This document shows, piece after piece, positions 20,988 to 43,675 of a DNA stretch of 64,000 nt (position 1 is the stretch's first letter; each line of letters begins with the position of its first letter). A model generated the notes under the pieces. That model made no database searches, had not been told where the DNA came from, and saw only the letters and a list, made by a program, of their open reading frames with translations. A program made the position numbers and the translations under genes. The DNA is from Longimicrobiales bacterium (GTDB lineage Bacteria; Gemmatimonadota; Gemmatimonadetes; Longimicrobiales; Gaopeijiaceae), in assembly GCA_965204735.1 (NCBI GenBank), contig OZ242008.1:1216001-1280000 (forward strand), written 5' to 3'.

Positions 20988-21071
20988 TCCGAGGGCAGGC
21001 GTCAACGGTGCGGCGAGGATGTGACGCTCCTTGGTTGTCGCTACCGTCTCAACATGGTTGTCGCTCGGCGC

Positions 21072-21899
<828 letters not shown>

Positions 21900-21971
21900 G
21901 GTGGAAGAGGATGGGCCGGCGACTGCCCAGTGGTCAAGCCGTCACAGGGCCGGGCGCGCTGGAGTTGCAGG

Positions 21972-22976
21972 TTACAGCAGCGACAGCAGCAAGTTGACGG
22001 TCAGCGAGCCGCCCACGTCGCGCACGAACTGGCCCCGTCCCGCGTTGGCGACCTGTTGCAGGAAGGACTCGGCCACGACGTCGGAAACCCCGGTCGTGTT
22101 GATGTAGACGGTAGACACACGGTGCCCGCTCCCCCGAGCGATCTGGGCAGCAGTGAGGATCGAAGAGCTTACCTCCTCGGGGTAGGCCGTGTTGTCGGTG
22201 ACGAGGACGATCACCCGCTGCTGTGCATGAGGGCGCCATTGCATGCGGGCGGCTTCGGCGAGGGCCATCAGAACGGCTTCCGGTCCATCGGAGTTCCTGC
22301 CCCGTCCCACTCCCATGCCAACCGCCAAGTTGTTCACGAAGCCGCGGAACGCGGAACGATTCAGCGTGGGGCCCGAGACCTCCCGCAAAGGGAAGACCGT
22401 CAGAGGCCGTTCCCAGTATCGGTCGCCGAACGCCACGAGCCCGAGGCCCAAGCTGGGCGAGAGGCGGTTCAGGAGGTCGCTCAGCTGGCCCACCTCCGTC
22501 TTCAGGGACGCCACCTGCCGGCCCATGCTGCTGGTCACGTCCAGGGCGATCACCAGGTCCAAGTGCGGGAACTGCGTGACCCTCTCGGCGGGGCGCGTTG
22601 CAGTCGGCCGCATTGGGACCACCGGGGGCGGCGCCGCGGTTGCGATTGACGGGCACTCGGGCTCGGGCGCAACCGACGGGCAGACCGGACACACGGGCGG
22701 ATCGTCCGCGTCTTCGGGCGCAGGGACGGCCGGGCATACGGGTGCCGGCACCGGCAGGCACACGGGGCAGGCGGCTGGTTCCGGCGGAGGCTCCATGGGC
22801 TCCGCGGGCGGGACGACGGCAACGACGGGCGGGGCAGGCGCGACCGGGGCGGGTTCGGCGTTGCGAACGTAGGGGAAGATCACGATCGCGATGAGGATGA
22901 ACGCGCCCATCGCCGATGCGAAGAGGTCGAGGGACGCCATCCCGAAGATGTCGATCTGCCGGTTGTGTCGTCTCAT
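21972..22976 (-). CDS. Membrane-anchored vWA domain protein with an ExbD/MotB-like TM Asp and a Pro/Cys-rich linker
   Basis: SLDLFASAMGAFILIAIV TM; CPVC/CP repeats; DVTSSM MIDAS-like and LVTDN motifs. Confidence 0.8.
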   Translation of the reverse strand: MRRHNRQIDIFGMASLDLFASAMGAFILIAIVIFPYVRNAEPAPVAPAPPVVAVVPPAEPMEPPPEPAACPVCLPVPAPVCPAVPAPEDADDPPVCPVCPSVAPEPECPSIATAAPPPVVPMRPTATRPAERVTQFPHLDLVIALDVTSSMGRQVASLKTEVGQLSDLLNRLSPSLGLGLVAFGDRYWERPLTVFPLREVSGPTLNRSAFRGFVNNLAVGMGVGRGRNSDGPEAVLMALAEAARMQWRPHAQQRVIVLVTDNTAYPEEVSSSILTAAQIARGSGHRVSTVYINTTGVSDVVAESFLQQVANAGRGQFVRDVGGSLTVNLLLSLL

Positions 22977-22994
22977 GGCCGAAAACGGTTGTCT

Positions 22995-24395
22995 CTACCG
23001 CCGACGGGTGTAGATCAGCAGCACACCGTTCTCGCCCCGGGTCCCGTACCGGATCCTGGCTTCGAGCCCCGGGATGAACTCCACGCTGGCCACGTCCCGG
23101 GCCGACATCGACTCCAGAAGCCCTTCTGGATCGCCGATCGACATGTCGTCCAGGAACACGGACACGGGCTCGCAAGGCGGTCCGAAAGCACCGGGGAACC
23201 GCCTTATCCTTCGGCGGGACTCGACGCACAACCCTACCCGGAAGCCCGACCTGTCACGCAACTCCCTAATCGTCAAGCTGGGAATGTTGGCCTGCCGGAG
23301 CACTGTGGCCATGGTCGTCACTCGATCCCGGATGGCGTCCATCTCGGTCTCCGTGAGGCCCAGGAAACGAGTGGTCATGTTTCGTCGCGGGTCGCGAGTT
23401 CGCGACGGCGTCGAAACCACAACTGGATCCAGGGGTATCGCTTCCACCGCGAGAGGGAGCCTTAGGCCAAAGGCGTTGCTCAGCAGGGACAGGGAGTCGG
23501 CCCGGAAGACGTATCCCATTTGCTTGGTTTCAATGACGTGGTCGCCTGGCGCCACCCCGACGAAGGCGAACTTGCCCTCCTCGTTGGTATGGGTCGCCTG
23601 CCCCGTGCCCGCAAGAGAGACGGCGGCGCCGACAATCGGTTGCTGCGTCGAATGGTCCAGCACCGTGCCCATGATCGCCACGGGGTCCGAAACCTCGACC
23701 GAGAGGTTCTGCATTCGGGGGCCCGGCCCGTCGATCCTTGCCGGTTCGCCGTCGTTCGACCCGAAGGTGGCCCGCACCAAGACGTCGCGCCCCGTCTCCA
23801 CGTTGCACAGACGGAACTCGCCGCCGATCCCGGACACCGTGGAGACCCTTCCCTGTCCGCCGGCGCTCTCGACGGGACCGACAAGAGCCTCTACCCGGGC
23901 GCCAGGCAACGGCCTCCCGGTGCGGGCGTTGGAGACCACACCGGCCACGTGAGCATCTCCGGCGCCCGGCTGCTCCCTGCACCACGCATCGAGCATCGAC
24001 TCCAGAGAAGGCACGGCCAGGGCCACTTCGGAAGTCGAGCCTGGACGGACGACCACCGGCTTGCCCGCCACCGAAATGCCGTAGTCGTCGAGGCGGGGGT
24101 GGTAGAACGAGACTTCGTACTCGCCGGGGGGCACGTCTTCGATGCGGAAGCGCCCGAATTCGTCGGTCTCTCCGGTGGCGTAGACGCCGATGATGCTCAC
24201 CTGCGCCTCCGCCAGCGGCGCGGCGACGGCGCTGTCGTACACCGTTCCGACTACAGCACCGGCCTGCCCCCCGGCCCGACCGGCCCAGGCGCCGACAAGG
24301 GCAACTCCAGATACGACGGCAACTCGCAACGCGAGCTCGCCCCTCTGCAACCGCCGGCCGTTGCCCGGCAACGCCCCCGCTGGCGTCGACCTCAC
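22995..24395 (-). CDS. Carboxypeptidase-regulatory-like repeats plus TonB plug-like domain protein
   Basis: Three GxVxDxxxxxPLxGAxV repeats; C-terminal VASVEFIPG...YGTRGENGVLLIYTR; GTGA overlap with the upstream gene. Confidence 0.75.
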   Translation of the reverse strand: MRSTPAGALPGNGRRLQRGELALRVAVVSGVALVGAWAGRAGGQAGAVVGTVYDSAVAAPLAEAQVSIIGVYATGETDEFGRFRIEDVPPGEYEVSFYHPRLDDYGISVAGKPVVVRPGSTSEVALAVPSLESMLDAWCREQPGAGDAHVAGVVSNARTGRPLPGARVEALVGPVESAGGQGRVSTVSGIGGEFRLCNVETGRDVLVRATFGSNDGEPARIDGPGPRMQNLSVEVSDPVAIMGTVLDHSTQQPIVGAAVSLAGTGQATHTNEEGKFAFVGVAPGDHVIETKQMGYVFRADSLSLLSNAFGLRLPLAVEAIPLDPVVVSTPSRTRDPRRNMTTRFLGLTETEMDAIRDRVTTMATVLRQANIPSLTIRELRDRSGFRVGLCVESRRRIRRFPGAFGPPCEPVSVFLDDMSIGDPEGLLESMSARDVASVEFIPGLEARIRYGTRGENGVLLIYTRRR

Positions 24396-25330
24396 TGGCT
24401 GCCGGCCCGGGGCGACGGGGGCCGGCCCTCGGGCGCCTTGCCGCCGGGTTCCGGGTGCTCGGACAACCGGCCCACGAAGTGTCGAAGACAGTACTGGCCG
24501 ATTTGGTTGAGAGCGCCTTCCTCCTTCTCCTGGGTCAGGTGCAGGGCCAACATCAGCACCGCGGCTTGCAGCAGCGCCAGCAACGTCGTGTAGAACGCGA
24601 CACCGAGATCGCCGGTCAGGGTCTGCATCATGTCGGGACCCATCGCCGTCGAAGCCAAGCTGGCACTGGCAAACAGCGTGCCTGCCGTCCGCAAGGCGAA
24701 TGCGATTCCCATGACCGTTCCTACGAAGCCGAGCGTGGGGATCAGCCAGACCAAGTAGCGCACGACGTTGTACCGCAACTCGATTTCGTGCTGGTACAGG
24801 TCCATGGACAGGTTGATCGTCGAGTTCACCTGGTCGATCGATCCGTTGGCCCGAAACTGCAGCAGTGCGCCGGACAACAAGCCCTGCAACATGTACCGTC
24901 GTCCTGGGTCGGAGTCGCCGACGCGTCGTTGCATGGCTTCCAGGTCCTCCGGCCGGAGGGCTGCATCGTCGTCTTCGGAAAGCAGCTTCAAGTCCATCTG
25001 AGCGCGTTCGCGACGGCCCGCCAAGTTGCGGACGAGCAGTTCGCCGCCGGCCGTGCAGAACACAAGCCACATGACGTTCTGGATCGTGAACGGATAGGGG
25101 AATATCCGGGTGTTCCGGTCCAGCAGCAGGTCGGCGGCGACGCTGTCGTGCCCTGCCGGAATGAGATACGAGAGGATGCCGACCAAGACGATGCCGGCGA
25201 GCGCCGAGCCGAACAGGACGACGACGCGGAAGGGGATGTGGTCCTCGCCGCCGGAGCCGGCGAGGGGGAGTGCCACGGGCCACCGGGACGCCGGCGGCTT
25301 CGGCGACCGGCTGGTCAAGGAGCCTGGCAC
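24392..25330 (-). CDS. MotA/TolQ/ExbB proton channel family protein
   Basis: WLIPTLGFVGTVMGI and LGVAFYTTLLAL motifs. Confidence 0.88.
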   Translation of the reverse strand: MPGSLTSRSPKPPASRWPVALPLAGSGGEDHIPFRVVVLFGSALAGIVLVGILSYLIPAGHDSVAADLLLDRNTRIFPYPFTIQNVMWLVFCTAGGELLVRNLAGRRERAQMDLKLLSEDDDAALRPEDLEAMQRRVGDSDPGRRYMLQGLLSGALLQFRANGSIDQVNSTINLSMDLYQHEIELRYNVVRYLVWLIPTLGFVGTVMGIAFALRTAGTLFASASLASTAMGPDMMQTLTGDLGVAFYTTLLALLQAAVLMLALHLTQEKEEGALNQIGQYCLRHFVGRLSEHPEPGGKAPEGRPPSPRAGSQ

Positions 25331-26784
25331 CTGGGCAGCCGCACTCCGTTTCTCTGGGGGTTGATCTCCGACTCGAAGCGTCGCAGGCCGCGGGGGATGC
25401 AGCCTGTGAGGAGGTTGTTGTGCAGTGTGAGTCGTCGCAGGCTCCCGAGGTTCTCGAACGTCTCCGGGATTTCGCCGGACAGCTGGTTTCCGTTCAAGGT
25501 CAGCAGCTCGAGATCGGACAGGTTCCCCAGGTCGGGCGGCAGCTCGCCAGTCAGCTGGTTGTTGTGAAGGCGCAGGCGCCTGAGCTTGGTCAGCCGCCCC
25601 AGCTCCGACGGAATCGCTCCCGACAATCGGTTGTTGTCGGCGTACAGGTCCTCCAGCTCGCGCAACGAACCGAACTCCTCCGGGATCGGGCCGGAGAGCT
25701 GATTGCCTTCGAGGTACAAGACAGTCAGCTTGCTCAGGGATCCGATCTCCGGCGGTATGGGACCCGACAGACGGTTGCCGAAGAAGCTCAGGTACGTCAG
25801 GTCGTCAAGGTTGGCCAGTCGTCGCGGCAGCGAACCGCCCAAGTTCTGCCGGCCCAGGTCCAGGCCGTCAACCTGCCCCTGGCGGCCGATCGCGACTCCG
25901 GTCCACGTCACCAAGTTGGCGTTGCGACGCCAGTTGAGCTGCCCCGTAGCGCCCACCAGAGCGCTGGCGGTCGCAAGCAGCACGTCGGGGTCGCTCTCCG
26001 CCGCTTCCGCCGCCGCTTGCGCTTCGGCTAGGCGTTGCGCTTCGGCCAGCCGCTGGGCCTCCGCCAGCATCTCGGCTTCCCGGCGCTCGGCTTCGGCGCG
26101 ACGCTCTTCTTCTGCCCGACGCCGGGCCTCGGTCAGTCGCGCGGCTTCTTCTCGTTCCGCCTGGGCGCGACGCTCCTCTTCGAGTCGCCGGGCTTCCTCT
26201 CGGGCCAGCCGCTCCTCTTCGAGCCGCTCGGCTTCCGCACGCTGCTCCGCCTCGAGCCGTTCCTGCTCGGCCAGCCGCTGGGCCTCCGCCAACCGTTGCG
26301 CTTCGGCCAGCCGCCGGGCCGCCAGCCGTTCCGCCTGCGCTGCGCGACGCTCCGCTTCTTCCAGGCGCTGGAATTCGGCTTGACGTTCGGCCTCGGCCAG
26401 CCGTTCCGCCTCGCTTTGCTCCGCTTGGGCGCGACGCTCCGCCTCGCGACCGGCCGCGAGGAGCGCCGACAAGCTTGCGCCGTCCAGGTACCCGGTCTCC
26501 TCGGCGCCCCGTTCGGCCTGCCACGCTCGCAACGCCGCACGCGCACCCGGCTCCATTTCGCCGTCCGGCTCGCGGCCGTAGTACCCTTCTTCGGCCAGCG
26601 CCCTTTCGACCAGCGCGATGGACTCGGCGTCCAGTTCCAGTTCCGCTTCCGCCGCAACGGCGCGCTCTTCGGGCGTGAGCGACCGGCTCCGCGAGACCCA
26701 CACCACGACCACGGCGCTGGTTGCGAGAACCAGAATCGCAAGACTGTAGAAGAGGTGCCGCCTGCTGATCCGGCGCAGGTCCAC
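25315..26784 (-). CDS. TM anchor, peptidoglycan-binding domain, long charged helix and C-terminal LRR protein
   Basis: LAEEGYY..PDG..G..AL.AWQ..G..TG.LD (PG_binding_1-like); ~170 aa A/E/R helix; 24 aa NxLSGxIPxExG LRRs. Confidence 0.82.
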   Translation of the reverse strand: MDLRRISRRHLFYSLAILVLATSAVVVVWVSRSRSLTPEERAVAAEAELELDAESIALVERALAEEGYYGREPDGEMEPGARAALRAWQAERGAEETGYLDGASLSALLAAGREAERRAQAEQSEAERLAEAERQAEFQRLEEAERRAAQAERLAARRLAEAQRLAEAQRLAEQERLEAEQRAEAERLEEERLAREEARRLEEERRAQAEREEAARLTEARRRAEEERRAEAERREAEMLAEAQRLAEAQRLAEAQAAAEAAESDPDVLLATASALVGATGQLNWRRNANLVTWTGVAIGRQGQVDGLDLGRQNLGGSLPRRLANLDDLTYLSFFGNRLSGPIPPEIGSLSKLTVLYLEGNQLSGPIPEEFGSLRELEDLYADNNRLSGAIPSELGRLTKLRRLRLHNNQLTGELPPDLGNLSDLELLTLNGNQLSGEIPETFENLGSLRRLTLHNNLLTGCIPRGLRRFESEINPQRNGVRLPRCQAP

Positions 26785-26786
26785 TC

Positions 26787-27875
26787 CTACCACGTCCACC
26801 TCAGTCCCGCGACGGTTCGACGACCTTCGCGCCCCATGAAGAGTTCGCTGGTCACGGCCCCGTCGGGGCCGTCGCCCAAAGGACCGACGGGGACGGCAAG
26901 CGCAGTGGTAGTAGCCCGGACCGCGGCTTCGATCTCGGACAGCTCCCTCGCGGCCAGGACCCACTGGGTGCCTCCCCACGCCCCGAGTCCGCCGCCGACG
27001 CCCATGATCCACCTTCTGGCCTTTTCTGAGCTAGCCCGTCGGTCCAGGGCGTCCTCGTACTCTTCGGGCGTCTCGAAGTCTTCTGCCGTCGGCTCTCCGA
27101 AGTAGGGGATCCACTCGATCGTCGCGTAGCTTGCTCCCATGAGGAAGAGGCCCCACCACACCTTGGCTCTGCCCGACGAACGCTTTTCCTGGGCTTGGAC
27201 GTACCGTTCGTCGATGGAAGGCGCGGAGGCTTGTCGAAGGTTCAACCCCAGCTTGCGCGTGTTCCGCCAACCGTAGCCCCACTGGAATGCGCCCCAGGCG
27301 CCGAGACCGGCACTCAGGCCAGTGACGACGGATCGGCCCGTTTCGGCAGCTTGGCGCTGGTCCACGGCGGACAGATAGTCTTCGTCGCTGTCGTAGTCCG
27401 CCGTGTCGGGAACCTGCAGGGGCGGAATGTACTCCAGCGCCGCGTAGGCGGCAGCCGCCAGCACGACGCCCCAAATGACCTTCTTCCGTCCCGACCGTCG
27501 GCGCCCCATCTCCCTCTCGTACTGACGCTCCAGGTCGGGTATGGACATCTCGGCGGCGGCCGCCCCTCCGGTCGTCTGGGCGATTCCTCCCGTGGGAACT
27601 CGCATTCCCACTATCTCCACTTCGCTGGCCAGGACGTACCCCACCAAGTTCTCCTGGCCCGTCTCTCCCGGAAGCGAGATCGCGTAGTAAGGGCCGGATT
27701 CGCCGACCCAGTCCACCAGCGTGCCGGCGGAGAGCGTAGTGATGACCGGGCTGGAGGCGTCGGGGTCGAGCCGCACGGAGACCTCGTCCGACACGGTGCG
27801 GACTTGCTGGGCGTGCAGCGTCGCCCCTCCCGACGCAAGCACCAGGAGGGAGACGGCGAAGGCTGATCGGATCAA
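26787..27875 (-). CDS. Secreted SH3b-like protein with two internal hydrophobic-hairpin repeats and a C-terminal aromatic beta signal
   Basis: Signal peptide; VRLDPDASSPVITTL...GYV SH3b pattern; duplicated SGRxKVxWG...GLGAWG; ends AGLRWTW. Confidence 0.65.
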   Translation of the reverse strand: MIRSAFAVSLLVLASGGATLHAQQVRTVSDEVSVRLDPDASSPVITTLSAGTLVDWVGESGPYYAISLPGETGQENLVGYVLASEVEIVGMRVPTGGIAQTTGGAAAAEMSIPDLERQYEREMGRRRSGRKKVIWGVVLAAAAYAALEYIPPLQVPDTADYDSDEDYLSAVDQRQAAETGRSVVTGLSAGLGAWGAFQWGYGWRNTRKLGLNLRQASAPSIDERYVQAQEKRSSGRAKVWWGLFLMGASYATIEWIPYFGEPTAEDFETPEEYEDALDRRASSEKARRWIMGVGGGLGAWGGTQWVLAARELSEIEAAVRATTTALAVPVGPLGDGPDGAVTSELFMGREGRRTVAGLRWTW

Positions 27876-27925
27876 TGGAGTTTCCTTTGGTTGATTGGGC
27901 CGCAAGCGCTGACGGTGGGCCACGT

Positions 27926-27977
27926 ATCGTAGCCCTGCGCCCGAGCAACAACTACGTCAGAATCGGGTCAGTTTATG
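27926..27977 (-). promoter_or_regulatory. Conserved promoter-like motif, copy A
   Basis: Minus strand reads CTGACC-N5-CTGACG-TAGTTG-N17-TACGAT upstream of the SH3 operon. Confidence 0.55.
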
Positions 27978-28237
27978 TCGATATCCGATCCGCACTTCTG
28001 ATGCCGGCCTTTCTGGCACTTCGACTGACCTGCACCTCCAGATTCGGCTCCAGAAGCGCTCGTGCCCTGTCCGGCTGTGCCGCGGCCCCCATCGATCTCT
28101 GCCGAGAAGGCGCGATGTCGCCAACACCAACGAAGCTGAGCACCGCCGAGTCCGGCGTGACGTTTCTGCCTACTCCCTCAACTCAACTCAACTGTGCCGG
28201 ACTGGCCCACGTACCATCCAGTCCGCCCCTACTACTA

Positions 28238-31057
28238 CTACTGGCAGGAGCCGGGCCGGCAGGCGTATTTCGAAGCGTCTTCGATTGTGTACTGCAAGGC
28301 CTCTGTAGCGTCCACATGAAAGGTCTCGCCGTCCACCACGACCGGGCCGCCCAGCCGAATCGAATCGCCGGCCAACGCGTGTCCGTGGTTCGGGCAAAAT
28401 CCGTAACCGGTCTCGTAGTCGTATCTCGTGGCGTCGCCGCTGCACACTTCCGACTTCGGCAAGACCCGGCCGGGACCGCCGATGAACGGAACCCGGCTCG
28501 CACCGATCGACATGATCGTGCCGTAGGTCACTGTTCTGCCGCCGGTGAGGGCAATCTCGCCTTTGTATCCCCAGCCGCTCGGATGAAAGATGTATTCAAC
28601 GCTCTTCCCGATGTAGTACCCAGGATGGTGATATAACCCCAGGTTGTGACCGATCTCGTGCGCGACAACTCCTATGAAGTTATTGCGCCGGATGGGGTGA
28701 TTCACGTTGGGCATCTTGCGGCCGCTGAAACAATACGGGTCGGTAAGGGCGATACTGGGCCATTGGCGTGCATCCTCTAGAGAGTCGCCTTTGTTGCGAA
28801 CGCCTGCCATGCCACAGATACCGCCGCCAGTCCCCGATTGTATTATATGTATCAGATCAACCTTCAACACCGCCCTCGCGCTTTCAGCCAGGCCCGAGGC
28901 TGTTGCATATAGTGCGACATTGTTACGAACCATATTGTCATACTGACAACGGACGAAGTGCTTGTAGTCTTGATAGGCCACAATGACGGGCCGGAATTCG
29001 ATGTTCACTCCAGACCTCTGGAAGATGCCCGTCACCTCAGGAACTCCGACTTCCGTCATCCACTCGGCCCAACCGCCCCGCCAATACTCCTTGTCCAATA
29101 TGAAGGCGACGTCGATCACATACGTCGTGTTCGGATCGGCCTTCCTGCCCAGCCATTTCGCAGTCGCTGAGCGACGAGTCGCACCTGTGCCTCTTGCAAA
29201 CACCATGTCGCCGCCGACGACCTGGAAGAGCTTATCGAATCCGGCTTGCTTGGCACAGTTCAAGGAGCCACGGCCCCCAGTGGAATCGGCATCGATGGAG
29301 AACTCCAGCGACGGCGAGCCCCCGAACGACAACGCATAGCGGCCGGCCTGATAGACCCGCGTTGTGTCGCCCCAGACCCACCGCCATGCGTCTTGAGGGC
29401 CGGGCGGCTGGACCTCGACTACCGTCTGCGAGCCCGTCGCGACCACCGACACCTGGTCGTCGCAGATCGGGCCGCAGCTGTCCGTGCCGCCCCAGCGCCG
29501 CGCCGCCAGGTCCCAGCCGCTGTCGTGCGCGTTGCCCACCGTCTTCACCTCCAGCATCCGCAGCACGTTCGCCACCGCGCCCGGATCGCCCGCGTCCAGC
29601 GGCAGCCAGCCCGCCGCGCCCGCCGGGCCGGGCTCGTACCCGTCGATCGCGATCTTCACCACCGTCCGGGGATCGCCCGTGCTCGCGCTCGTCTCCGCGC
29701 CGTCGCTCGACACGAACGACCAGCCCACGCGAGGAACCGTCGTCACCTTCATCGCACGCGAGCAGTTGTTCCCCGTCTCCCGCTCCCCCTCCACCGCCTC
29801 CACGCACGCGCCGACCCACGACACGCTCCACAACGCCGACGCCGAATCCGCACCGTACTCCGCCGCCAGCCTCGCCGACCCGCCGCGCGCCAAAGCCTCC
29901 ACTTCCCGCGGCTCGCCCACGCGCTCGTCCGTCGCCTCGATCACCGAGTCCGGCGACACGTACGCCGCCACCGTCGTCGCCGCTGCCGACCCGGCGTCCT
30001 CGCCCACGTTGCGCACCTCGACCTCGAACTCGACGCTGCCGCCCGGCGCCAACGCCACACTGTCCCTCGACACTGCCGCCGCCAAGTCCGGCCTGCCCGT
30101 CACCGTCACTCTGATCGACTCCGAGCAGTTGTCGCCCGTGTCCGCCTCCCACTCCACCGGGTCCACGCACTCGCCCACATAGAGGATCGCCCCCAGTTCC
30201 GCCGCCGGGCTCACCGTGAACGAGCCCGTCCTGCTCGCCGACTCGCCCGGACCCAGCGCTGGCACTGGGGACGGCGCACCCACCACATCGTCCGAGGTCG
30301 TGATCATGTTGTCGGTCGACACGAACGTTCTCGCTCGGGTCGCTGCCGCCGCCGTGTCGCCCCGGTTGCGAACGGTGGCCACGTACTCGAAGCTGCCCCC
30401 CGCCCAAGTCGCCGCGCCGGCGGGCGACAGGCTCGCCGTCAAGTCCGGCAGGACCGCTAACGCCGTCGCCCGGACCTCGGCCGACACGCCGTCGCGCACC
30501 GTTGCCGCCAGCACTTGCTCGCCGCCCGAGTCCCCAAGCGTCCATCTTGTGGACGCGAGCCCGGTCGAATCGCTTCGCGCCGCCCAGGGATCGGCTGTGC
30601 CGTGGCCCTCCGCCGGCACGAACGTCACGCTCGCACCCGGCACTGGCGAACCGCCCGCGTCCAAGAGCCGCACGACGACAGGCTCCCGAAGCGACTCGCC
30701 GACACGGGCCCACTGGTCGGCGCCCGCAAACGGCTCCACCACTGCGACCGCTCCTTCGTGCGGCTCCGTGCCCGACTCGCCGCACGCGGCAAGCCCCGAT
30801 GCGCTGAAGATGAGTGCAAGAGACGGCCACTTGCAACGACTTGGACCACTTCGCCTCGGCAACACTGCCACAGAAAACGTACATCCCAGCTTGCGACGTT
30901 CCTTGCCACGCCGAGCTTCAGCACCCGTGCACGGCTCCGGTTGCGGCGTCGCCTCAGCGTCGGCCCATCGCACCGCCGTGCCGACACCATGCAAACACTT
31001 CAGCCAACCGATTCGTTCCAACTGGCGTCTCGTCTCATCATATTCATTCATTGTCAA
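28238..31057 (-). CDS. Lipoprotein with Ig-like and CARDB domains and a C-terminal metzincin (M12B/reprolysin-like) peptidase
   Basis: LAAC lipobox; PDL...VRNxG...ExxTGxNCS repeats; HEIGHNLGLYH and TIMS Met-turn; start uncertain. Confidence 0.8.
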   Translation of the reverse strand: MTMNEYDETRRQLERIGWLKCLHGVGTAVRWADAEATPQPEPCTGAEARRGKERRKLGCTFSVAVLPRRSGPSRCKWPSLALIFSASGLAACGESGTEPHEGAVAVVEPFAGADQWARVGESLREPVVVRLLDAGGSPVPGASVTFVPAEGHGTADPWAARSDSTGLASTRWTLGDSGGEQVLAATVRDGVSAEVRATALAVLPDLTASLSPAGAATWAGGSFEYVATVRNRGDTAAAATRARTFVSTDNMITTSDDVVGAPSPVPALGPGESASRTGSFTVSPAAELGAILYVGECVDPVEWEADTGDNCSESIRVTVTGRPDLAAAVSRDSVALAPGGSVEFEVEVRNVGEDAGSAAATTVAAYVSPDSVIEATDERVGEPREVEALARGGSARLAAEYGADSASALWSVSWVGACVEAVEGERETGNNCSRAMKVTTVPRVGWSFVSSDGAETSASTGDPRTVVKIAIDGYEPGPAGAAGWLPLDAGDPGAVANVLRMLEVKTVGNAHDSGWDLAARRWGGTDSCGPICDDQVSVVATGSQTVVEVQPPGPQDAWRWVWGDTTRVYQAGRYALSFGGSPSLEFSIDADSTGGRGSLNCAKQAGFDKLFQVVGGDMVFARGTGATRRSATAKWLGRKADPNTTYVIDVAFILDKEYWRGGWAEWMTEVGVPEVTGIFQRSGVNIEFRPVIVAYQDYKHFVRCQYDNMVRNNVALYATASGLAESARAVLKVDLIHIIQSGTGGGICGMAGVRNKGDSLEDARQWPSIALTDPYCFSGRKMPNVNHPIRRNNFIGVVAHEIGHNLGLYHHPGYYIGKSVEYIFHPSGWGYKGEIALTGGRTVTYGTIMSIGASRVPFIGGPGRVLPKSEVCSGDATRYDYETGYGFCPNHGHALAGDSIRLGGPVVVDGETFHVDATEALQYTIEDASKYACRPGSCQ

Positions 31058-33524
31058 TTTTTGTGATTAGGGTCAACGTACCTTGCGGCTCAGGCGCCTC
31101 TTGGAGCAACCGCGAGTGCAACCGCGAGTAGTCCGACTCAGCTTCCTCCACGACCAGCGAGTACTCCCCTCTGGTGTCGGCGGAGTAGCTCCCCGCGAGC
31201 ACCGTCACCTTTCCCGAGTCGGGCATGACGAACTCGATCTGGCTGTCCGAGCCCAGAGACCGATAGTCGTCCGAGTACTGCACCTCGCCGTCGCGCAGCA
31301 CGTACAGCACCGCGTCCACATCGCTCGACCGAGCCCGCACCACGACCCGCTTGCCCGAATCCGCCTCGACAGTCCACCTGCTCAGACGATGTCCCCGGAT
31401 CGGATCGACGAAGCTGGACCTGTCGGCCGAAGACAGAGAGTCAGACACCAAGTCCGGAACGGACAGGGGGGTGTCTCTGGACTCAGGCTGCGCCTCTTGG
31501 AGCAACCGCGAGTAGTCCGACTCAGCTTCCTCCACGACCAGCGAGTACTCCCCTCCGGTGTCGGCGGAGTAGCTCCCCGCGAGCACCGTCACCTTTCCCG
31601 AGTCGGGCATGACGAACTCGATCTGGCTGTCCGAGCCCAGAGACCGATAGTCGTCCGAGTACTGCACCTCGCCGTCGCGCAGCACGTACAGCACCGCGTC
31701 CACATCGCTCGACCGAGCCCGCACCACGACCCGCTTGCCCGAATCCGCCTCGACAGTCCACCTGCTCAGACGATGTCCCCGGATCGGATCGACGAAGCTG
31801 GACCTGTCGGCCGAAGACAGAGAGTCAGACACCAAGTCCGGAACGGACAGGGGGGTGTCTCTGGACTCAGGCTGCGCCTCTTGGAGCAACCGCGAGTAGT
31901 CCGACTCAGCTTCCTCCACGACCAGCGAGTACTCCCCTCCGGTGTCGGCGGAGTAGCTCCCCGCGAGCACCGTCACCTTTCCCGAGTCGGGCATGACGAA
32001 CTCGATCTGGCTGTCCGAGCCCAGAGACCGATAGTCGTCCGAGTACTGCACCTCGCCGTCGCGCAGCACGTACAGCACCGCGTCCACATCGCTCGACCGA
32101 GCCCGCACCACGACCCGCTTGCCCGAATCCGCCTCGACAGTCCACCTGCTCAGACGATGTCCCCGGATCGGATCGACGAAGCTGGACCTGTCGGCCGAAG
32201 ACAGAGAGTCAGACACCAAGTCCGGAACGGACAGGGGGGTGTCTCTGGACTCAGGCGGCGCCTCTTGGAGCAACCGCGAGTAGTCCGACTCAGCTTCCTC
32301 CACGACCAGCGAGTACTCCCCTCCGGTGTCGGCGGAGTAGCTCCCCGCGAGCACCGTCACCTTTCCCGAGTCGGGCATGACGAACTCGATCTGGCTGTCC
32401 GAGCCCAGAGACCGATAGTCGTCCGAGTACTGCACCTCGCCGTCGCGCAGCACGTACAGCACCGCGTCCACATCGCTCGACCGAACCCGCACCACGACCC
32501 ACTTGCCCGAATCCGCCTCGACAGTCCACCTGCTCAGACGATGTCCCCGGATCGGATCGACGAAGCTGCTGTCGTTTGACAATACTGCCGTAGTATCAAC
32601 ACTGCCTTCAACCCGTTCCGGTGAGTTAAGTAGTGCATTCATGTATGAATTCTCTCGTTGTAATCGGTACGTGCCGTATCCGTTGCTGGCGACGCTGGTA
32701 TCCATCCCCACAATGAGTGGAAGATAACCAGATGGAGGCATAACGCCGCGAACGATAGCAGATTGCCGACCTAGGTCGCTAACCGTTAGGTCAAATTGCG
32801 GCAAGCTATAGACTATCGGACGAAAAACTTCTGACCACGTAACGAGTGACAGTCGTTCTCCTCCATCACCTTTTACTGCCCACAGATCAAAATGATATCC
32901 CCTAAGTGAGTCTAAAGGGTCACTGCGGCTAATCTCACCGTCCCATATCGTGTCTGGGTCCCATATCGTGTCTGAGCCAGGGCTATGGTCCTTGGAGTCA
33001 GAGGGGCTAAGGTTGATAAAGTTATCGTCGCATTTGGAGCATGGAGCCGGACAGCTGGGCACGGCGGCTACTAAGTCCAAGCTACACAGTCTGGAGGGCA
33101 GCACGAGAAGGCTTCCCAATTTATCCAACATGTTGTTGACCGGAATATCCAGTTCACGCTTGAACGAGTCCGGATCCCCAAGATCAAACACGATGTCGCC
33201 GCCGTTCTCTCGCCTGTGCTCGTAAATCTTGTCGAGCGTCACCATATCGAGTTCTGGACTCTCGTGATCAATGGTTATTTTTACCCTATCCTGATTTGTA
33301 TCAATACTTTCGCAAGGACGTTTGGTCAACTTCTTCTTTAGTTTGCAGATGTCTTTCTGGTGAGCGCGATTTTTTAACCAAGACTCGATACTATGATCGA
33401 ACGTAACGGCCGCCAGAGCGCCCACCAGAGTGCTCACCAGCACAAGCATTAGCGGCGACCTGAGGAACCGGAACACGGTCGGTTTTGGGCGCACCGATTC
33501 TTCGGGTGTGGATGAGTCGCTCAT
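31044..33524 (-). CDS. TM-anchored protein with tandem PPC-like (pre-peptidase C-terminal) domains
   Basis: SSDVDAVLYVL...SDD...GSDSQI...GEYSL motif four times; N-terminal TM; lower-GC 5' half. Confidence 0.75.
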   Translation of the reverse strand: MSDSSTPEESVRPKPTVFRFLRSPLMLVLVSTLVGALAAVTFDHSIESWLKNRAHQKDICKLKKKLTKRPCESIDTNQDRVKITIDHESPELDMVTLDKIYEHRRENGGDIVFDLGDPDSFKRELDIPVNNMLDKLGSLLVLPSRLCSLDLVAAVPSCPAPCSKCDDNFINLSPSDSKDHSPGSDTIWDPDTIWDGEISRSDPLDSLRGYHFDLWAVKGDGGERLSLVTWSEVFRPIVYSLPQFDLTVSDLGRQSAIVRGVMPPSGYLPLIVGMDTSVASNGYGTYRLQRENSYMNALLNSPERVEGSVDTTAVLSNDSSFVDPIRGHRLSRWTVEADSGKWVVVRVRSSDVDAVLYVLRDGEVQYSDDYRSLGSDSQIEFVMPDSGKVTVLAGSYSADTGGEYSLVVEEAESDYSRLLQEAPPESRDTPLSVPDLVSDSLSSADRSSFVDPIRGHRLSRWTVEADSGKRVVVRARSSDVDAVLYVLRDGEVQYSDDYRSLGSDSQIEFVMPDSGKVTVLAGSYSADTGGEYSLVVEEAESDYSRLLQEAQPESRDTPLSVPDLVSDSLSSADRSSFVDPIRGHRLSRWTVEADSGKRVVVRARSSDVDAVLYVLRDGEVQYSDDYRSLGSDSQIEFVMPDSGKVTVLAGSYSADTGGEYSLVVEEAESDYSRLLQEAQPESRDTPLSVPDLVSDSLSSADRSSFVDPIRGHRLSRWTVEADSGKRVVVRARSSDVDAVLYVLRDGEVQYSDDYRSLGSDSQIEFVMPDSGKVTVLAGSYSADTRGEYSLVVEEAESDYSRLHSRLLQEAPEPQGTLTLITKIDNE
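31120..32567. repeat. About 3.8 near-identical 384 bp tandem repeats (128 aa)
   Basis: Shadow ORFs recur at 31138, 31522, 31906 and 32290 (period 384); only a few SNPs between copies. Confidence 0.97.
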
Positions 33525-33779
33525 CCGAAACGGCCGTGGCAAAGCGTGCCAATGTAACCGTGGAGTTGCCTCGGTTCGTGGAACATGTCCATTCCAGTCT
33601 TCCAGACAAGGATGAGGTGCCCGTGGCGAGGCGGTCGGGCGATCCTATTCGCCCTTTCGGTGCTTGCTCGGCGGCTCAACATTTGACGAGGCCAGCCATG
33701 GCGGCACCGTGGCTCCCAGAGCGGGACCGGCGTCATCCGGTCCTCCGGGTTCCGCGGGTGGCGGACGGGACGGCTACGA

Positions 33780-39725: not shown

Positions 39726-42700
39726 CTACCGCCGCCAAGCGGCCGGCGCGGGCACGCCGCGGCTCACCTGGACCTCCAGTCCCGGCTCTGGAAGCCCCCG
39801 CGCCCCGTCCGTCCCGGCTGGGCCGCGGACTCCCGAACCGGACCAGTCGCGCAGGATGCCGCGTACCCTGCCAGTGGCCGGGTCCCGCAGCAGTGCCGCC
39901 GCTGGGCCGGACTGCGCGTCCATGGCCACCGAGCCGTCTGGACCCGTCAGCACGATTCGCGACAGCGCGTCCGCCCAGCTCGACTCCGTCGGAAGCGCGA
40001 GCGCGAACGACTGTCGGCCGTCTCCGTCCGCCGTCTCGGCCATCTCGAAGCGCCGGGTGAAGAGCACGCGGCCGTCTTCGGCCTCGCCGGCGAGCTGCCA
40101 AGCACCGGTACCGTCCAGCGGGGTCGGCGGCGCTTCGACCACGAACGCCGGGTTCAGGAACGGGCGCCCGTCGGCGCCGGCACCGCCCCAGAGCAGAAGG
40201 GCGCGCACCGGCAGTGCGGCCCCGATTCCGGTTTCGTCCTGCAGGCGCCACCGCAACGCGTTTGCAAAGTGGTAGTCGCTGATTCCGCCCCAGTTGCAGT
40301 AACCCATCACGTCGCGAGCATTCGGAGGCACCAAGCTGCGGGAACGATGATCCCAGCCCCACGCACCACTGCGCCCTTTGGCGTGCGGATACCCAGGATC
40401 AGGGCCTCCTGCGCCTCCGCAGGGTGCATGCCATAGGTGCATGTTGTGTCCGAATTCGTGTGCAACGACCCCTCCGTCCGGTGTAGAAAACATGACTCGG
40501 CCGGGAACATACGCAACTCCACCCCCAACACCCCCCATGGTGCCCATGTAGTAGCCTGCTCCACCCTCCATGACCCGAATCGCTTCGGTCTCACCCAGCT
40601 GCCATCCCTTGGTAGAAGTCCAAACGGGCTCGTGAACGGTTACTCTCATGCGCCCCACGGGAAGCCAGCTGCGAGTCTCCTTGAAGAGTGGGGCCTCGGG
40701 CGAAAGACCCCGGGTCACGTTCAGAATCGACGAGTCCGGCACCGTCTCCCAAAGAAAAGGCACCACCGTCACGTCGAACGTCGGCATCTCGTACACGTCC
40801 AGCGTCGTCCGCCCTACCTCCGGGACACGTCGCGGGACGCCCAGCTGCGGGTCGAGCGCACCTTCCGGGTCCAACACCACCACGATCTCGACGCCCGGAC
40901 GCAACACTTCTCCCGGAACCGCGGCGTTCGTAGACAGGTCAAGGCTGCGTTCAGCCGCTTCGGTCTGCGCTGGTATCGCTCCAGTTCCCGGCGATAATGG
41001 AACGCTGTGCTTGGAACCGTCCTGCTGATAGAACGTCGCCACGCCAGATGGAACGCGCACACCTTCAGCATCTGGAGCCGCCACCAACACGCGCAGCAAC
41101 CCTGGCCTGCCCGCGACCAGCGGCACGGGAAAGTCCGGCGACTGGACCGTCTGCACGACGTACGCCGTGGCAGTCGCCAAGGCTGTTTCCGTCCGCGTCT
41201 CGCATATGCGAACGTACCGATTCCAGAACGACCTCATCTGCAACCGCGTGGCGAAATCGCCGCCAACACACAGCCTCGTGCCAGTCGCGCTGAGGGAGCT
41301 CAGTCGACGCCAGTTGGCTATTGGCAATAGTCCAACCAGGTCCGCATTGCCCGACAGGTACAGGTGCGTCAAGTTGGCCAAGCCGCCCAGCTCGCGAGGT
41401 ATCTCGCCCGTCAAGTCGTTGCCCGACAGGTACAGGTGCGTCAAGTTGGCCAAGCCGCCCAGCTCGCGAGGTATCTCGCCCGTCAAGTCGTTGCCCCCCA
41501 GGTGCAGCCAGTCCAAGTTGGCCAAGCCGCCCAGCTCGCGAGGTATCTCGCCCGTCAAGTCGTTGCCCGACAGGTACAGGTGCGTCAAGTTGGCCAAGCC
41601 GCCCAGCTCGCGAGGTATCTCGCCCGTCAAGTCGTTGCCCCCCAGGTGCAGCCAGTCCAAGTTGGCCAAGCCGCCCAGCTCGCGAGGTATCTCGCCCGTC
41701 AAGTCGTTGCTCCACAGGTGCAGCACCCTCAAGTTGGCCAAGCCGCCCAGCTCGCGAGGTATCTCGCCCGTCAAGTCGTTGCCCCACAGGAACAGCACCC
41801 TCAAGTTGGCCAAGCCGCCCAGCTCGCGAGGTATCTCGCCCGTCAAGTCGTTGCCCCCCAGGAACAGATCCCTCAAGTTGGCCAAGCCGCCCAGCTCGCG
41901 AGGTATCTCGCCCGTCAAGTCGTTGCCCCCCAGGTGCAGCCAGTCCAAGTTGGCCAAGCCGCCCAGCTCGCGAGGTATCTCGCCCGTCAAGTCGTTGCTC
42001 AACAGGTGCAGCTCCCTCAAGTTGGCCAAGCCGCCCAGCTCGCGAGGTATCTCGCCCGTCAAGTCGTTGCCCCACAGGTCCAGGCTTCTGACGCGACCAC
42101 TTGCGTCCGTTTCGACTCCGTGCCAAACGTCCAGCGGCACGTCGGTCAGCCAGTTGTCGCTCCTGCTCCAGTCTTGGCCGCCTGTCGCATAGAAGAATGT
42201 CTCGAGGATGTCGCGGTCCGTCAGCGGCGGGCACTCGGTGCCCGTGCCGGAATGCGAGCGGACTGATCGCAACCAGGCTCGGAATGCTGGATCGGCCGGT
42301 ATGCACACTTTCGTGCCCTCGTACGACAAAACCCGCAACGGCAACGCAGTCATTCCCGACGCAAGGCGACCGTTCAATCGGCCGTTGCCGCCGAGCCGCA
42401 ACTCCCGGAGTGCCCGAAGAGACGCCCAGTTTCCTGCGAGCACACCGGACAAGTCGTTAGCAGTCAAGTCAATGCCTACGACGCGGCCGGACAAGGAGTC
42501 CGTCTCTATACCGTACCAGTCAGCCAAGGGCCCCGGCTGAAGCCACCCACTGGATGATGCCCACTCGGAACCGCCAGTCGCGTGGTAGAATGAGCGAAGC
42601 GCCGCAGCCTCGGCCTCGTGGCAGAACGGCCCACGGCTTCGTTCAAGTCCTTGCACAAAGTCGATGAAGCTTCGCGTGCCAGGCGCACACAAGCCAGCAT

Positions 42701-43643
42701 TATCTGACCAGAACAAACCTCTCAGGACGCTTGAACGGGCTAGTTCGTGCGGTACCTCACCGCTCAAGTTGCTGTTGGTCACGGCTAGCCACTCCAAGTT
42801 GGCCAACTCACCCAGATCCGACGGGAGGCCGCCGGTGAAATCGTTGCCCTGCAAGTACATTTCTCTCAGACTGGTCAAACTGCCCAATTCTGATGGGACC
42901 TTACCAGTCAAATCGTTCAGGTACAGGTTTTCCAAGTTGGACAAGTTGCCCAGCTCTAGCGGGATCTCGCCGCCAGAGGTCGCGATGGCCAGGGAAATGA
43001 GCCTTGACAAGTTGCCCAATTCTGGTGGTATGTCGCCGCGAAAGTCGTTAAATTGCAGGGACAGCGTCGTCAAGTTGGACAAGTTGCCCAGTTCCCGAGG
43101 TATCGCTCCCGTCAGGTTGTTGTTGTTCAGATCCAGCGTCGTCAAGCTGGACAAGCCGCCCAGTTCCCGAGGTATCTCGCCGGTCAGGTTGTTGTCGCGC
43201 AGAGACAGCGTCGTCAAGCTGGACAAGCCGCCCAGTTCCCGAGGTATCTCGCCGGTCAGGTTGTTGTCGCGCAGAGACAGCGTCGTTAAGTTGGACAAGC
43301 CGCCCAGCTCCCGAGGTATCTCGCCCGTCAGGTTGTTGCCGGAAATCGTTAACTCTAGAACGTGACCACTTTCGGACGCCCTGACTCCGTGCCAAGTGTT
43401 CAGCGATGCGCCGGTCAGCCAGTTGTCGCTGTTGTCCCAGTCCGGGCCGTTAGTCGCCTCGTACAGAGCCACCAGCACGGCGCGGTCGCCAGCCGCCGTC
43501 GCGAAAGCGCTTGCGCCGCCGCCAGCCGGCGCGACCAGGGGCTCGGTCAGCTCGTCGTTGCAGGCCGTCGCCGCGAGCACGAAGGCGAATGCGGCAACCA
43601 CATGCTGGCGTGCAGTCTTGTTGTTGAGGATGTCGCGACGCAT
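39726..43643 (-). CDS. Large LRR lipoprotein with a C-terminal M66-like metallopeptidase
   Basis: AAGGAG plus ATG at 43643; ATAC lipobox; three LRR blocks with DRxxLxxxYxATxGxxW caps; HEFGHNMHLWHAPC. Confidence 0.88.
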   Translation of the reverse strand: MRRDILNNKTARQHVVAAFAFVLAATACNDELTEPLVAPAGGGASAFATAAGDRAVLVALYEATNGPDWDNSDNWLTGASLNTWHGVRASESGHVLELTISGNNLTGEIPRELGGLSNLTTLSLRDNNLTGEIPRELGGLSSLTTLSLRDNNLTGEIPRELGGLSSLTTLDLNNNNLTGAIPRELGNLSNLTTLSLQFNDFRGDIPPELGNLSRLISLAIATSGGEIPLELGNLSNLENLYLNDLTGKVPSELGSLTSLREMYLQGNDFTGGLPSDLGELANLEWLAVTNSNLSGEVPHELARSSVLRGLFWSDNAGLCAPGTRSFIDFVQGLERSRGPFCHEAEAAALRSFYHATGGSEWASSSGWLQPGPLADWYGIETDSLSGRVVGIDLTANDLSGVLAGNWASLRALRELRLGGNGRLNGRLASGMTALPLRVLSYEGTKVCIPADPAFRAWLRSVRSHSGTGTECPPLTDRDILETFFYATGGQDWSRSDNWLTDVPLDVWHGVETDASGRVRSLDLWGNDLTGEIPRELGGLANLRELHLLSNDLTGEIPRELGGLANLDWLHLGGNDLTGEIPRELGGLANLRDLFLGGNDLTGEIPRELGGLANLRVLFLWGNDLTGEIPRELGGLANLRVLHLWSNDLTGEIPRELGGLANLDWLHLGGNDLTGEIPRELGGLANLTHLYLSGNDLTGEIPRELGGLANLDWLHLGGNDLTGEIPRELGGLANLTHLYLSGNDLTGEIPRELGGLANLTHLYLSGNADLVGLLPIANWRRLSSLSATGTRLCVGGDFATRLQMRSFWNRYVRICETRTETALATATAYVVQTVQSPDFPVPLVAGRPGLLRVLVAAPDAEGVRVPSGVATFYQQDGSKHSVPLSPGTGAIPAQTEAAERSLDLSTNAAVPGEVLRPGVEIVVVLDPEGALDPQLGVPRRVPEVGRTTLDVYEMPTFDVTVVPFLWETVPDSSILNVTRGLSPEAPLFKETRSWLPVGRMRVTVHEPVWTSTKGWQLGETEAIRVMEGGAGYYMGTMGGVGGGVAYVPGRVMFSTPDGGVVAHEFGHNMHLWHAPCGGAGGPDPGYPHAKGRSGAWGWDHRSRSLVPPNARDVMGYCNWGGISDYHFANALRWRLQDETGIGAALPVRALLLWGGAGADGRPFLNPAFVVEAPPTPLDGTGAWQLAGEAEDGRVLFTRRFEMAETADGDGRQSFALALPTESSWADALSRIVLTGPDGSVAMDAQSGPAAALLRDPATGRVRGILRDWSGSGVRGPAGTDGARGLPEPGLEVQVSRGVPAPAAWRR
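41349..42089. repeat. 72 bp LRR array: ten copies of an invariant 51 bp scaffold alternating with 21 bp variable segments
   Basis: Scaffold copies start at 41370 + 72n (n = 0 to 9). Confidence 0.97.
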
Positions 43644-43675
43644 GGCCGTTCTCCTTGGTTTCCTTGCCGGCCGTC

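Follow-up and report, generated by a model that had tools for sequence, protein, structure and literature searches.

A gene cluster of a Longimicrobiales bacterium combines the predicted subunits of an envelope motor, a channel protein of the TolQ/ExbB fold and a single-helix partner with a vWA head, with an SH3b protein and an LRR protein whose sequence points to descent from a receptor Ser/Thr kinase. The reading we favor, to which we give roughly even chances, is that of an ion motor with an adhesion head in which the kinase-less receptor serves as a brace on the wall, so that force could be exerted across the envelope, the contacts between the proteins being predicted. The motor class itself is not new as a concept: motors pairing a TolQ-like protein with a trans-pore-helix (TPH) vWA subunit have already been predicted in the main text of Williams-Jones et al. 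2025 (PMC12204202), beyond which our literature search found no relevant paper.

The gene cluster and its conserved core

The cluster lies in a window of 64,000 nucleotides, the whole stretch of DNA analyzed here, and consists of five minus-strand genes. In order of transcription, these encode the SH3b protein (26787..27875; 362 aa), the kinase-less receptor with its TM helix, PG-binding domain, charged helix, and LRR domain (25315..26793; 492 aa), the MotA/TolQ/ExbB channel subunit (24392..25318; 308 aa), a carboxypeptidase-repeat protein (22995..24395; 466 aa), and the TPH subunit with the vWA domain (21972..22976; 334 aa). Successive genes overlap by 7, 4, and 4 bases, with an 18-base gap before the last, so that the tight coupling described in the first-pass annotation is real. 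Its five open frames also stand, except that the channel gene, which it began at 25330, likelier starts at a TTG overlapping the upstream stop; start codons are inferred from overlap and homologue alignment. Contigs from another study's run (X8, ~92-93% alike) span the SH3b-LRR-MotA, MotA-carboxypeptidase, and carboxypeptidase-vWA junctions, and the gene order is therefore not an assembly artefact. These contigs show this order in an independent strain, ~7% divergent, and a close strain is present in a sponge metagenome run. Pfam supports the domains first proposed (SH3_3, PG_binding_1, LRR, MotA_ExbB, CarboxypepD_reg, and VWA), the "plug" being a partial SusC/RagA match; none of the five genes has an NCBIfam match above cut-off. 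A scan of the cluster gave 0 promoters and 1 terminator-like site, fewer than in shuffles. The surrounding island contains transposase-like genes, and additional LRR genes lie at 39726-44915 of the window.

Conservation was surveyed in the best 80 of 467 related loci, comprising 38 LRR-type loci, all from Longimicrobiales, and 42 non-LRR loci. A metagenome scan gave 29 further loci, none closer than 69%. Among the 38 LRR-type loci of this best-80 set, the LRR protein gene lies immediately upstream of the channel gene in all 38, and the vWA gene is likewise retained in all 38, though variable in place and strand (26 convergent, 10 upstream, 2 downstream). The SH3b gene is present in 36, the other two loci being truncated by contig ends, and the carboxypeptidase-repeat gene is linked to the motor in 3, as well as in L193. 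Thus, the five genes first taken for one unit are indeed adjacent in the window, but those conserved together are four: the core consists of the SH3b, LRR receptor, channel, and vWA genes, and the carboxypeptidase-repeat gene is accessory. Its product is a secreted protein with a CarboxypepD_reg domain and a SusC-plug-like end without a barrel (partial SusC/RagA match to TIGR04056, residues 241-465). It belongs to a large family, with 16 more tblastn matches in the same genome. In quick trees, as were all those built here, the copies of the window, L005, L028, and L042 form one group (SH-aLRT 98) that also takes in a single long-branch row; this grouping and the presence of a copy in L193 led us to drop the idea of a chance insertion. 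The neighboring gene at 21072-21899, with 0 matches in the best 80 of 467 loci, was left out of the cluster.

The predicted motor pair and its parent operon

The channel subunit has four hydrophobic helices and matches Pfam MotA_ExbB above cut-off (E 1.1e-8). Its motifs P194-T195-x-G-F-x-G-T201 and T244-T245, which we take to be equivalent to the pore-lining threonines of ExbB/TolQ, recur in the channel alignment as P-T-x-G-F-x-G-T in 81 of 81 rows and A-F-Y-T-T in 78 of 81. A structural model (pLDDT 83) yields top Foldseek rows that are all TolQ/ExbB, and structural matches to TolQ (Z 13.6, rmsd 3.3 over 208 aligned), ExbB (Z 12.8), ZorA (Z 11.1), and MotA (Z 9.5). By sequence and model, this is a TolQ/ExbB-fold protein with the Thr motifs kept; three canonical PF01618 genes occur elsewhere in the genome.

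The vWA subunit runs from a basic N-terminus through a TM helix with Asp17 and a 96-residue Pro/Cys-rich linker to the vWA head (Pfam VWA, E 8e-9), which aligns with the integrin beta-8 I domain (E 1e-4). The linker measures 90-110 residues in the reduced clade versus 54 in L041, a locus with an intact kinase. The head has the MIDAS residues D146-x-T-x-S150, N228-x-D230-x-P-E233, and D261, in columns kept across the alignment (D146 and S150 in 120 of 121 rows, E233 and D261 in 121 of 121); given this D-x-S/T-x-S motif with distal acidic ligands, metal binding is predicted. The first-pass annotation had staked its motor proposal on the Asp of the SLDLF segment and on co-occurrence of the genes elsewhere. 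This Asp is invariant: 117 of 121 aligned rows carry it, the remaining 4 having gaps, and it is found in 75 of 75 helix matches in the best 80 of 467 loci. In 74 of those 80, the helix and channel genes are no more than 10 kb apart. The proposed uncharacterized motor pair, with a MIDAS vWA domain on an Asp-bearing single-helix subunit, is thus supported by the Asp, the co-occurrence, the Thr motifs, and the TolQ/ExbB fold.

Sequence and predicted fold together establish the identities of the two subunits. By analogy with ExbBD, TolQR, and MotAB, the TolQ-fold protein would form a pentameric inner-membrane ring around the Asp-bearing helices of two vWA proteins, and ion flux would drive rotation of an axle whose proline-rich linker crosses the periplasm and carries a metal-dependent head of the adhesion type. 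Against a motor stand the long branch of the window's channel subunit (0.32, departing at 26 of 175 conserved columns, beyond any other dead- or absent-kinase row), a PDB sequence search with the channel profile that gave one match at E 0.48 and none better, and the helix, which has no profile match to four ExbD/TolR N-termini, a small set that control helices from the LRR protein did not match either. The tolR, exbD, and motB Pfam families were not found among the five genes and their neighbors, nor was SHLS in column counts over residues 1-39 of the vWA helix.

With TolQR-TolA and ExbBD-TonB, the window motor shares the channel fold, the Thr motifs, and the Asp-bearing partner helix, but it has a vWA head for the ExbD/TolR domain, an extra N-terminal helix, and no SHLS transducer; the cluster lacks TolB, Pal, and a TonB-dependent barrel, and an LRR stands in place of the TolA/TonB C-terminal domain. 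Myxococcus Agl-Glt gliding uses a TolQ/ExbB-type motor with FHA-bearing membrane proteins and vWA adhesins, along with ExbD-like partners and TonB-like transducers; parent-operon proteins of the window family give weak, local GltG/GltJ matches, and the Glt outer-membrane set is missing here. The features described for TPH-vWA motors in the main text of PMC12204202 place the window cluster in that class: a TolQ-fold gene, an Asp-bearing single-helix vWA partner, a helix without SHLS, and Thr motifs kept. A heterologous TPH-vWA gene pair is predominant there, though not universal, whereas the window cluster has one TPH gene; the helix has one match in the whole genome and two in 1 of 74 loci (L062) of the best 80 of 467. 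A sister family in marine gammaproteobacteria has paired TPH genes in 4 of 4 loci, its channel matching that of the window family at E 1e-21 to 1e-27 and its helix with an hhalign probability of 97%. Unlike the motors of that report, in whose main text "kinase" and "trypsin" have 0 occurrences, the window family belongs to a branch associated with genes for kinase, PP2C, FHA, and trypsin-FHA proteins, and it has in addition the LRR receptor remnant and the SH3b protein.

The motor pair derives, as judged from its homologues, from a larger operon with FHA, PP2C, trypsin-FHA, and receptor Ser/Thr kinase genes. Within the best 80 of 467 loci, the 42 non-LRR loci have the two FHA genes in 40 and 39, PP2C in 36, trypsin in 30 and 33, and the kinase in 38; the counts in the 38 LRR-type loci are FHA 1, PP2C 1, trypsin 0, and kinase-like 14. 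The ectodomains of the parent operon interchange (Sel1, ankyrin, FGE, PEGA, LRR). So do its helix heads: of 38 from the best 80 of 467 loci, 6 are vWA like that of the window, 13 are other vWA-like, and 19 are non-vWA, the last without a Pfam match and presumably resembling YfaP/DUF2135. The kinase, PP2C, and FHA readers would presumably have switched the motor. In the window genome, custom profiles found neither FHA nor a cognate kinase; they were used because a whole-genome PF00498 search misses the known FHA gene of L041.

This wealth of signalling parts and of interchangeable ectodomains and heads would also suit an envelope sensor or defence device, in which a gated ion channel or Zorya-like sensor answers wall damage or an invader detected by the LRR and SH3b proteins with depolarisation or signalling, not mechanical work. 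The channel shares the fold family of ZorAB and MotAB, weak ZorA and ZorB profile matches are seen (those to ZorB1 over the helix of homologues), and the motor is patchily spread (present in 41 of 314 genomes of the bacterial family and in 0 of 3 from the genus of the window genome), here on an island with transposase-like genes. Yet in PADLOC the channel subunit reaches no better than E 6e-4, and the remaining four genes have no match; the ZorA tail, an OmpA-type wall anchor on the B subunit, ZorC/D/E or another cytoplasmic effector, and flagellar genes are all missing, and the window genome lacks every cytoplasmic signalling part of the operon. Retention in 35 of 53 genomes of one genus is more like a lineage trait, and we consider a sensor or defence role unlikely.

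Stepwise decay of the phospho-switch

The LRR protein consists of one TM helix (residues 15-33), PG_binding_1, a charged helical stalk of ~150 residues, and a plant-type LRR domain. Its homologues identify it, at the sequence level, as a descendant of a Hanks receptor Ser/Thr kinase from which the kinase has been lost. The orthologues in L041 and L193 carry an intact kinase (VAIK Lys, HRD, DFG), and no VAIK/HRD/DFG domain or remnant of one was found in the window at 21001-29000. The 38 LRR-type loci of the best 80 of 467 comprise 1 with an intact kinase, 10 with a dead one, 3 with half of it deleted, 22 with none, and 2 that are cut; an active and a kinase-less copy coexist in one genome. The loci L041 and L193 form the sister group (SH-aLRT 92) of a clade of dead and absent kinases (SH-aLRT 99), half-deletion and full loss happened separately (AU p 4.6e-9), and a loss in the window independent of the 24-row clade is unsupported (AU p 0.126). 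The phospho-switch has thus decayed step by step within the lineage.

The rest of the receptor, from the membrane anchor and the wall-binding domain to the stalk of fixed length and the tip formed by the LRR, has been retained under selection. Over 231 pairs from 22 kinase-less loci, dN/dS is 0.27 for the receptor, 0.19 for the vWA subunit, 0.20 for the channel, and 0.34 for the SH3b protein. Of 39 rows, 33 could be anchored, and in 32 of these the stalk measures 245-275 residues (258 in the window, against 309 and 323 in the intact-kinase rows). Neither the pair counts nor the stalk lengths are independent, because most kinase-less rows fall in one shallow clade of 24. This purifying selection and nearly fixed length suggest a structural role for the membrane-wall-stalk-LRR part, and a receptor still intact after stepwise loss of its kinase suggests a structural brace of the motor. 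L052, a separate reduction, likewise retains a TM-stalk protein. Selection on the remnant would, however, also be expected from a sensor or adhesin role apart from the motor. YukC/EssB of type VIIb secretion, as described in PMC9600267, is a comparable protein with a kinase fold, stalk, and extracellular domain; it acts as a structural hub for a membrane machine, has FHA partners, and sets a precedent for dead-kinase forms; the machine is unrelated, and here the series continues to full loss of the kinase fold.

The first-pass annotation had instead seen in the LRR protein a TolA with its domain III replaced. In this form it would be a transducer that the motor pulls, its TM helix docked laterally on the pentamer. 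The outline is that of TolA (TM, long charged helix, end domain), the charged helix matches TIGR02794 (E 3e-8, 33 bits against a cut-off of 59), and the constant position directly upstream of the channel gene and the conserved stalk length are as expected of a transducer. Nevertheless, S-x-x-x-H occurs in 0 of 33 anchored helices, in keeping with that annotation's own remark that a clear SHLS motif is lacking, and 3 have a His solely at the cytoplasmic edge. In addition, the ancestry is that of a receptor kinase, a wall-binding domain straight after the membrane would pin the stalk, and the main text of PMC12204202 assigns the force-bearing element of such motors to the trans-pore vWA subunit. 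We regard a TolA/TonB-type transducer as quite unlikely.

Predicted work of the motor

The SH3b protein has a signal-peptide-like start, an SH3b domain (Pfam SH3_3, E 2.5e-5, below the curated cut-off), a long helical hairpin, hydrophobic and rich in glycine, that occurs twice, and a C-terminal beta-hairpin ending in Trp; its model (pLDDT 80) has SH3 strands at 24-89, helices at 115-325, and strands at 342-361. A fold search of the whole protein against the PDB found SH3-type matches, none reaching E 0.001, and Atlas matches, all below 0.9, give Borrelia P13 and DUF5683 (0.83) as leads. The shape of the sequence and these Atlas matches make it a probable outer-membrane, wall-binding partner. 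With the receptor remnant as brace, the motor would be tied to peptidoglycan, as the vWA subunit alone could not achieve, and the LRR would be set at the far periplasmic side, within reach of both the vWA head and the SH3b membrane protein. The motor would then most likely exert force on the inner membrane, the wall, and the outer membrane relative to one another, in envelope tethering or remodelling or in working the SH3b protein, with phospho-control gone.

The earlier interpretation, whose motor pair stands and whose TolA-type transducer does not, also had the motor export, display, or activate the surface proteins of the island or drive host adhesion. An integrin-beta-like head and a close strain in a sponge metagenome run fit such a role, as do the LRR genes at 39726-44915, further LRR genes within 10 kb in 8 of the 38 LRR-type loci (best 80 of 467), and the Big1/LRR and carboxypeptidase-repeat genes co-oriented with the vWA gene in L193. 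Export and display find no direct support: the vWA and LRR proteins both have inner-membrane anchors, the best 80 of 467 loci show no conserved barrel, secretin, or ATPase, and 30 of the 38 lack a further nearby LRR gene, leaving this role improbable. Decay of the whole cluster into a relic after loss of the switch, suggested by the stepwise gene loss, single in-frame stops in each of two L005 genes, and the long branch of the window's channel subunit, is very improbable in view of the dN/dS of 0.19-0.34 for the four core genes, five open frames, invariant catalytic-type motifs, and the gene order shared with the divergent strain.

Carrying the braced motor further, we tentatively propose, as a doubtful extension, that a receptor kinase, by way of dead and truncated stages that survive today, joined a TPH-vWA rotary motor as a third subunit anchored in the wall. 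It would brace the pentamer on peptidoglycan, and the axle would press the integrin-beta-like head onto either the tip of the LRR protein or the SH3b protein in the outer membrane. Four genes would then make up a force machine spanning the envelope without TolA/TonB or an OmpA-type anchor, specific to sponge-associated Longimicrobiales. For TPH-vWA motors, a predicted class, the questions at stake are how they are held in place and what load they act on. Among the self-contained sets in the present survey with candidate wall and outer-membrane partners, the four-gene version is the smallest, which makes these questions of anchoring and load testable. The natural series, in which the kinase is first active, then a pseudokinase, then halved, and finally gone, presents a signalling receptor apparently retained for its scaffold, and it sets the mechanical core apart from the phospho-control found in the larger operon.

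Gene cluster and genomic setting

As the first-pass annotation had claimed, five genes lie together on the minus strand: an SH3b protein (27875-26787), an LRR protein with a transmembrane (TM) helix, peptidoglycan (PG)-binding domain and stalk (26793-25315), a MotA/TolQ/ExbB-type channel subunit (25318-24392), a carboxypeptidase-repeat protein (24395-22995), and a vWA protein (22976-21972). Their coordinates and frames were confirmed, with inferred start codons; neighboring genes overlap by 7, 4, and 4 bases, and the last two are 18 bases apart. Pfam matches comprise PG_binding_1 and LRR, MotA_ExbB, CarboxypepD_reg, and VWA, with SH3_3 below the cut-off. Every junction is bridged by ~92-93% similar contigs from a different study's sponge metagenome run; thus, the gene order and the absence of a kinase ahead of the LRR-protein helix are real.

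The genome is a single 4.14-Mb contig (completeness 98%) in which the SH3b, channel, and vWA genes are single-copy; outside the cluster it has three canonical PF01618 genes. The cluster is patchy: it occurs in 41 of 314 family genomes, with 35 of 53 positive in one genus, 4 of 19 in a second, and none of the 3 others in its own genus. It is surrounded by transposase-like and secreted-protein genes, in an island-like stretch (17944-45475) with a YhgA-like transposase, AAA_14/DUF4143, a CARDB-reprolysin, a DDE transposase, an LCAT-like hydrolase, PhoD, an LRR-M66 protein, a four-fold repeated PPC protein (31044-33542), and GC dips at ~32-34 and ~36-38 kb. A 275-aa gene with a polyproline run and no Pfam match (21072-21899) has an interrupted, 66% alike paralogue at 3620236-3621037 of the same genome (G000:C1), adjoining transposase-like frames.

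The predicted motor pair

The channel subunit and the vWA protein very probably form a motor pair. By sequence, the channel subunit found nothing in the PDB better than E 0.48. Its model (pLDDT 83, pTM 0.75) ranks TolQ and ExbB first in Foldseek, and both again top VIA-align (TolQ, Z 13.6, rmsd 3.3 over 208 residues; ExbB, 12.8), with lower scores for ZorA (11.1) and MotA (9.5), on a scale where Z alone is not decisive, a designed helical protein scoring 11.2 against the same model. P194, T195, G197, G200, T201, T244, and T245 are invariant among 41 aligned subunits, and the two Thr motifs are present in 81/81 and 78/81 rows. The vWA partner carries Asp17 in its single TM helix in 117 of 121 rows, the others being gaps, a conservation that the first-pass motor reading calls for. 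Its MIDAS is intact in the alignment columns. The head matches the integrin beta-8 I domain at E 1e-4, over a region that takes in the N-x-D-x-P-E stretch.

Among the best 80 of 467 GTDB loci around relatives of the channel gene, the closest of which are labeled Longimicrobiales or Gemmatimonadota, a gene for such an Asp-bearing trans-pore helix (TPH) lies within 10 kb of the channel gene in 74, and 75/75 helices have the Asp. Outside the LRR-type loci, the 38 helix proteins comprise 6 with this vWA, 13 with another vWA-like head, and 19 with non-vWA domains, the last being small beta-type heads without a Pfam match (L046:15136-15942, L052:10790-11587, L078:12435-13211, and 16 more). The head is thus exchangeable. 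By analogy with TolQR/ExbBD, the pair would work as a motor of that type, with 5:2 assembly, ion flux, and rotation extrapolated from known motors; that it instead acts as a sensor or defence channel is unlikely.

A receptor kinase and its reduction

Of the same 80 loci, 42 represent a larger, kinase-wired parent operon, from Gammaproteobacteria, Acidobacteriota, Latescibacterota, Binatota, and one alphaproteobacterium. There the channel gene neighbors two small FHA genes (39 and 40 loci), a PP2C gene (36), a pair of trypsin-TM-FHA genes (30 and 33), and Hanks kinases whose ectodomains vary (38). The remaining 38 are all of the Longimicrobiales type, with a fixed SH3b-LRR-channel order. Each has the vWA gene (26 convergent, 10 upstream, 2 directly downstream), and 36 the SH3b gene, the other two ending at contig ends; FHA (1), PP2C (1), trypsin (0), and the carboxypeptidase gene (3) are rare or absent. 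Hence the core comprises four genes, and the five-gene association first proposed holds for all but the carboxypeptidase gene. This belongs to a large paralogue family whose motor-linked copies cluster together, and L193, beyond the 38 loci, also has one; it is probably an old, mostly lost accessory. Sixteen further matches in its own genome form a secreted carboxypeptidase-repeat family with a SusC-plug-like end and no barrel.

The gene upstream of the channel at L041 and L193 encodes a kinase-TM-PG binding-stalk-LRR protein with intact VAIK, HRD, and DFG. Among the 38 LRR-type loci, 10 have a full-fold pseudokinase lacking the catalytic Lys, with DFG changed to GFG or GFA, 3 only the N-lobe, and 22 no kinase; 2 are cut. 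The window's locus has no kinase, and a search of 21001-29000 found no remnant of one; its genome lacks FHA genes and has only a NERD-fused kinase, which is unrelated, and a PP2C located away from the cluster. Quick channel-subunit trees recover the two intact-kinase loci as the sister group (SH-aLRT 92) of the dead/half/absent clade (SH-aLRT 99). A single origin of half-deletion and full loss is rejected (AU p 4.6e-9); the window's loss fits being shared with a 24-row clade or separate (AU p 0.126). The LRR protein derives from a receptor kinase by decay. It had been read as a TolA with domain III replaced, albeit lacking a clear SHLS motif; the motif is indeed missing (S-x-x-x-H in 0/33 LRR-protein helices), and this, together with the kinase series, leads us to reject TolA ancestry. 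That it nonetheless acts as a TolA-type transducer, docking on the motor's side, is quite unlikely.

L193 (G346:C1:3438000-3457000), with intact kinase, FHA, and PP2C, shares its genome with L010, a copy that lacks the kinase. At L193, genes for a carboxypeptidase-repeat and a Big1/LRR protein are oriented like the vWA gene. On another contig of a pseudokinase-motor genome, L194 (G344:C34:54052-56655) has parent-type trypsin-FHA and small FHA genes, with no channel gene found in the surrounding 18 kb. A sponge-associated gammaproteobacterium (L052:9947-12740) shows an independent reduction of the parent operon: the channel is accompanied by a TM-stalk protein and a TPH with a non-vWA head, and its 20-kb locus has no match for kinase, FHA, or PP2C.

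Maintenance and possible role of the remnant

The receptor remnant is maintained. Median dN/dS over 231 non-independent pairs of 22 kinase-less loci is 0.20 (channel), 0.19 (vWA), 0.27 (LRR), and 0.34 (SH3b). Although of low complexity, the stalk is near-constant in length: 245-275 residues separate the membrane from the LRR cap in 32 of 33 anchored rows, the window having 258; the two intact kinases have 309 and 323. The vWA linker spans 90-110 residues in the reduced clade versus 54 in L041.

With an even chance of being right as a whole, we read the four-gene set as an envelope machine that generates force and is braced by what is left of the receptor. Its vWA axle lacks a wall-binding domain, and the motor would need a counter-support; the kinase-less receptor could serve as one through its membrane anchor, wall-binding domain, and fixed-length arm. 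The SH3b protein, modeled as an SH3b domain followed by two long helical hairpins and a beta-hairpin at its end, would add a second wall-binding domain on a body whose model shape, alongside sub-threshold Atlas leads, suggests the outer membrane. YukC/EssB (PMC9600267), a membrane pseudokinase acting as a scaffold, provides a precedent. That the motor serves export or adhesion is quite unlikely too. A relic is very improbable: 26 of the 175 conserved columns are changed in the window's channel subunit, and L005:6370-9962 has single in-frame stops in its SH3b and pseudokinase-LRR genes (decay or sequence error), but the dN/dS values and stalk length speak against it.

Tol-Pal, Ton, and Zorya are ruled out as the identity of this system. 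PMC12204202, whose term TPH-vWA we adopt, predicts TolQ-like motors with such partners, mostly heterologous pairs of unknown function. A sister TolQ-like family in marine gammaproteobacteria (L176-L179; G339, G342, G338), ordered as helical-repeat-like, PEGA/FGE, TolQ-like, and a heterologous TPH pair with MIDAS-type motifs, matches the description of these motors in its paired TPH genes. The window system belongs to the predicted class as a variant with a single helix gene, in contrast to the mostly heterologous pairs described there. Literature searches found no published description of the kinase-wired branch or its reduction.
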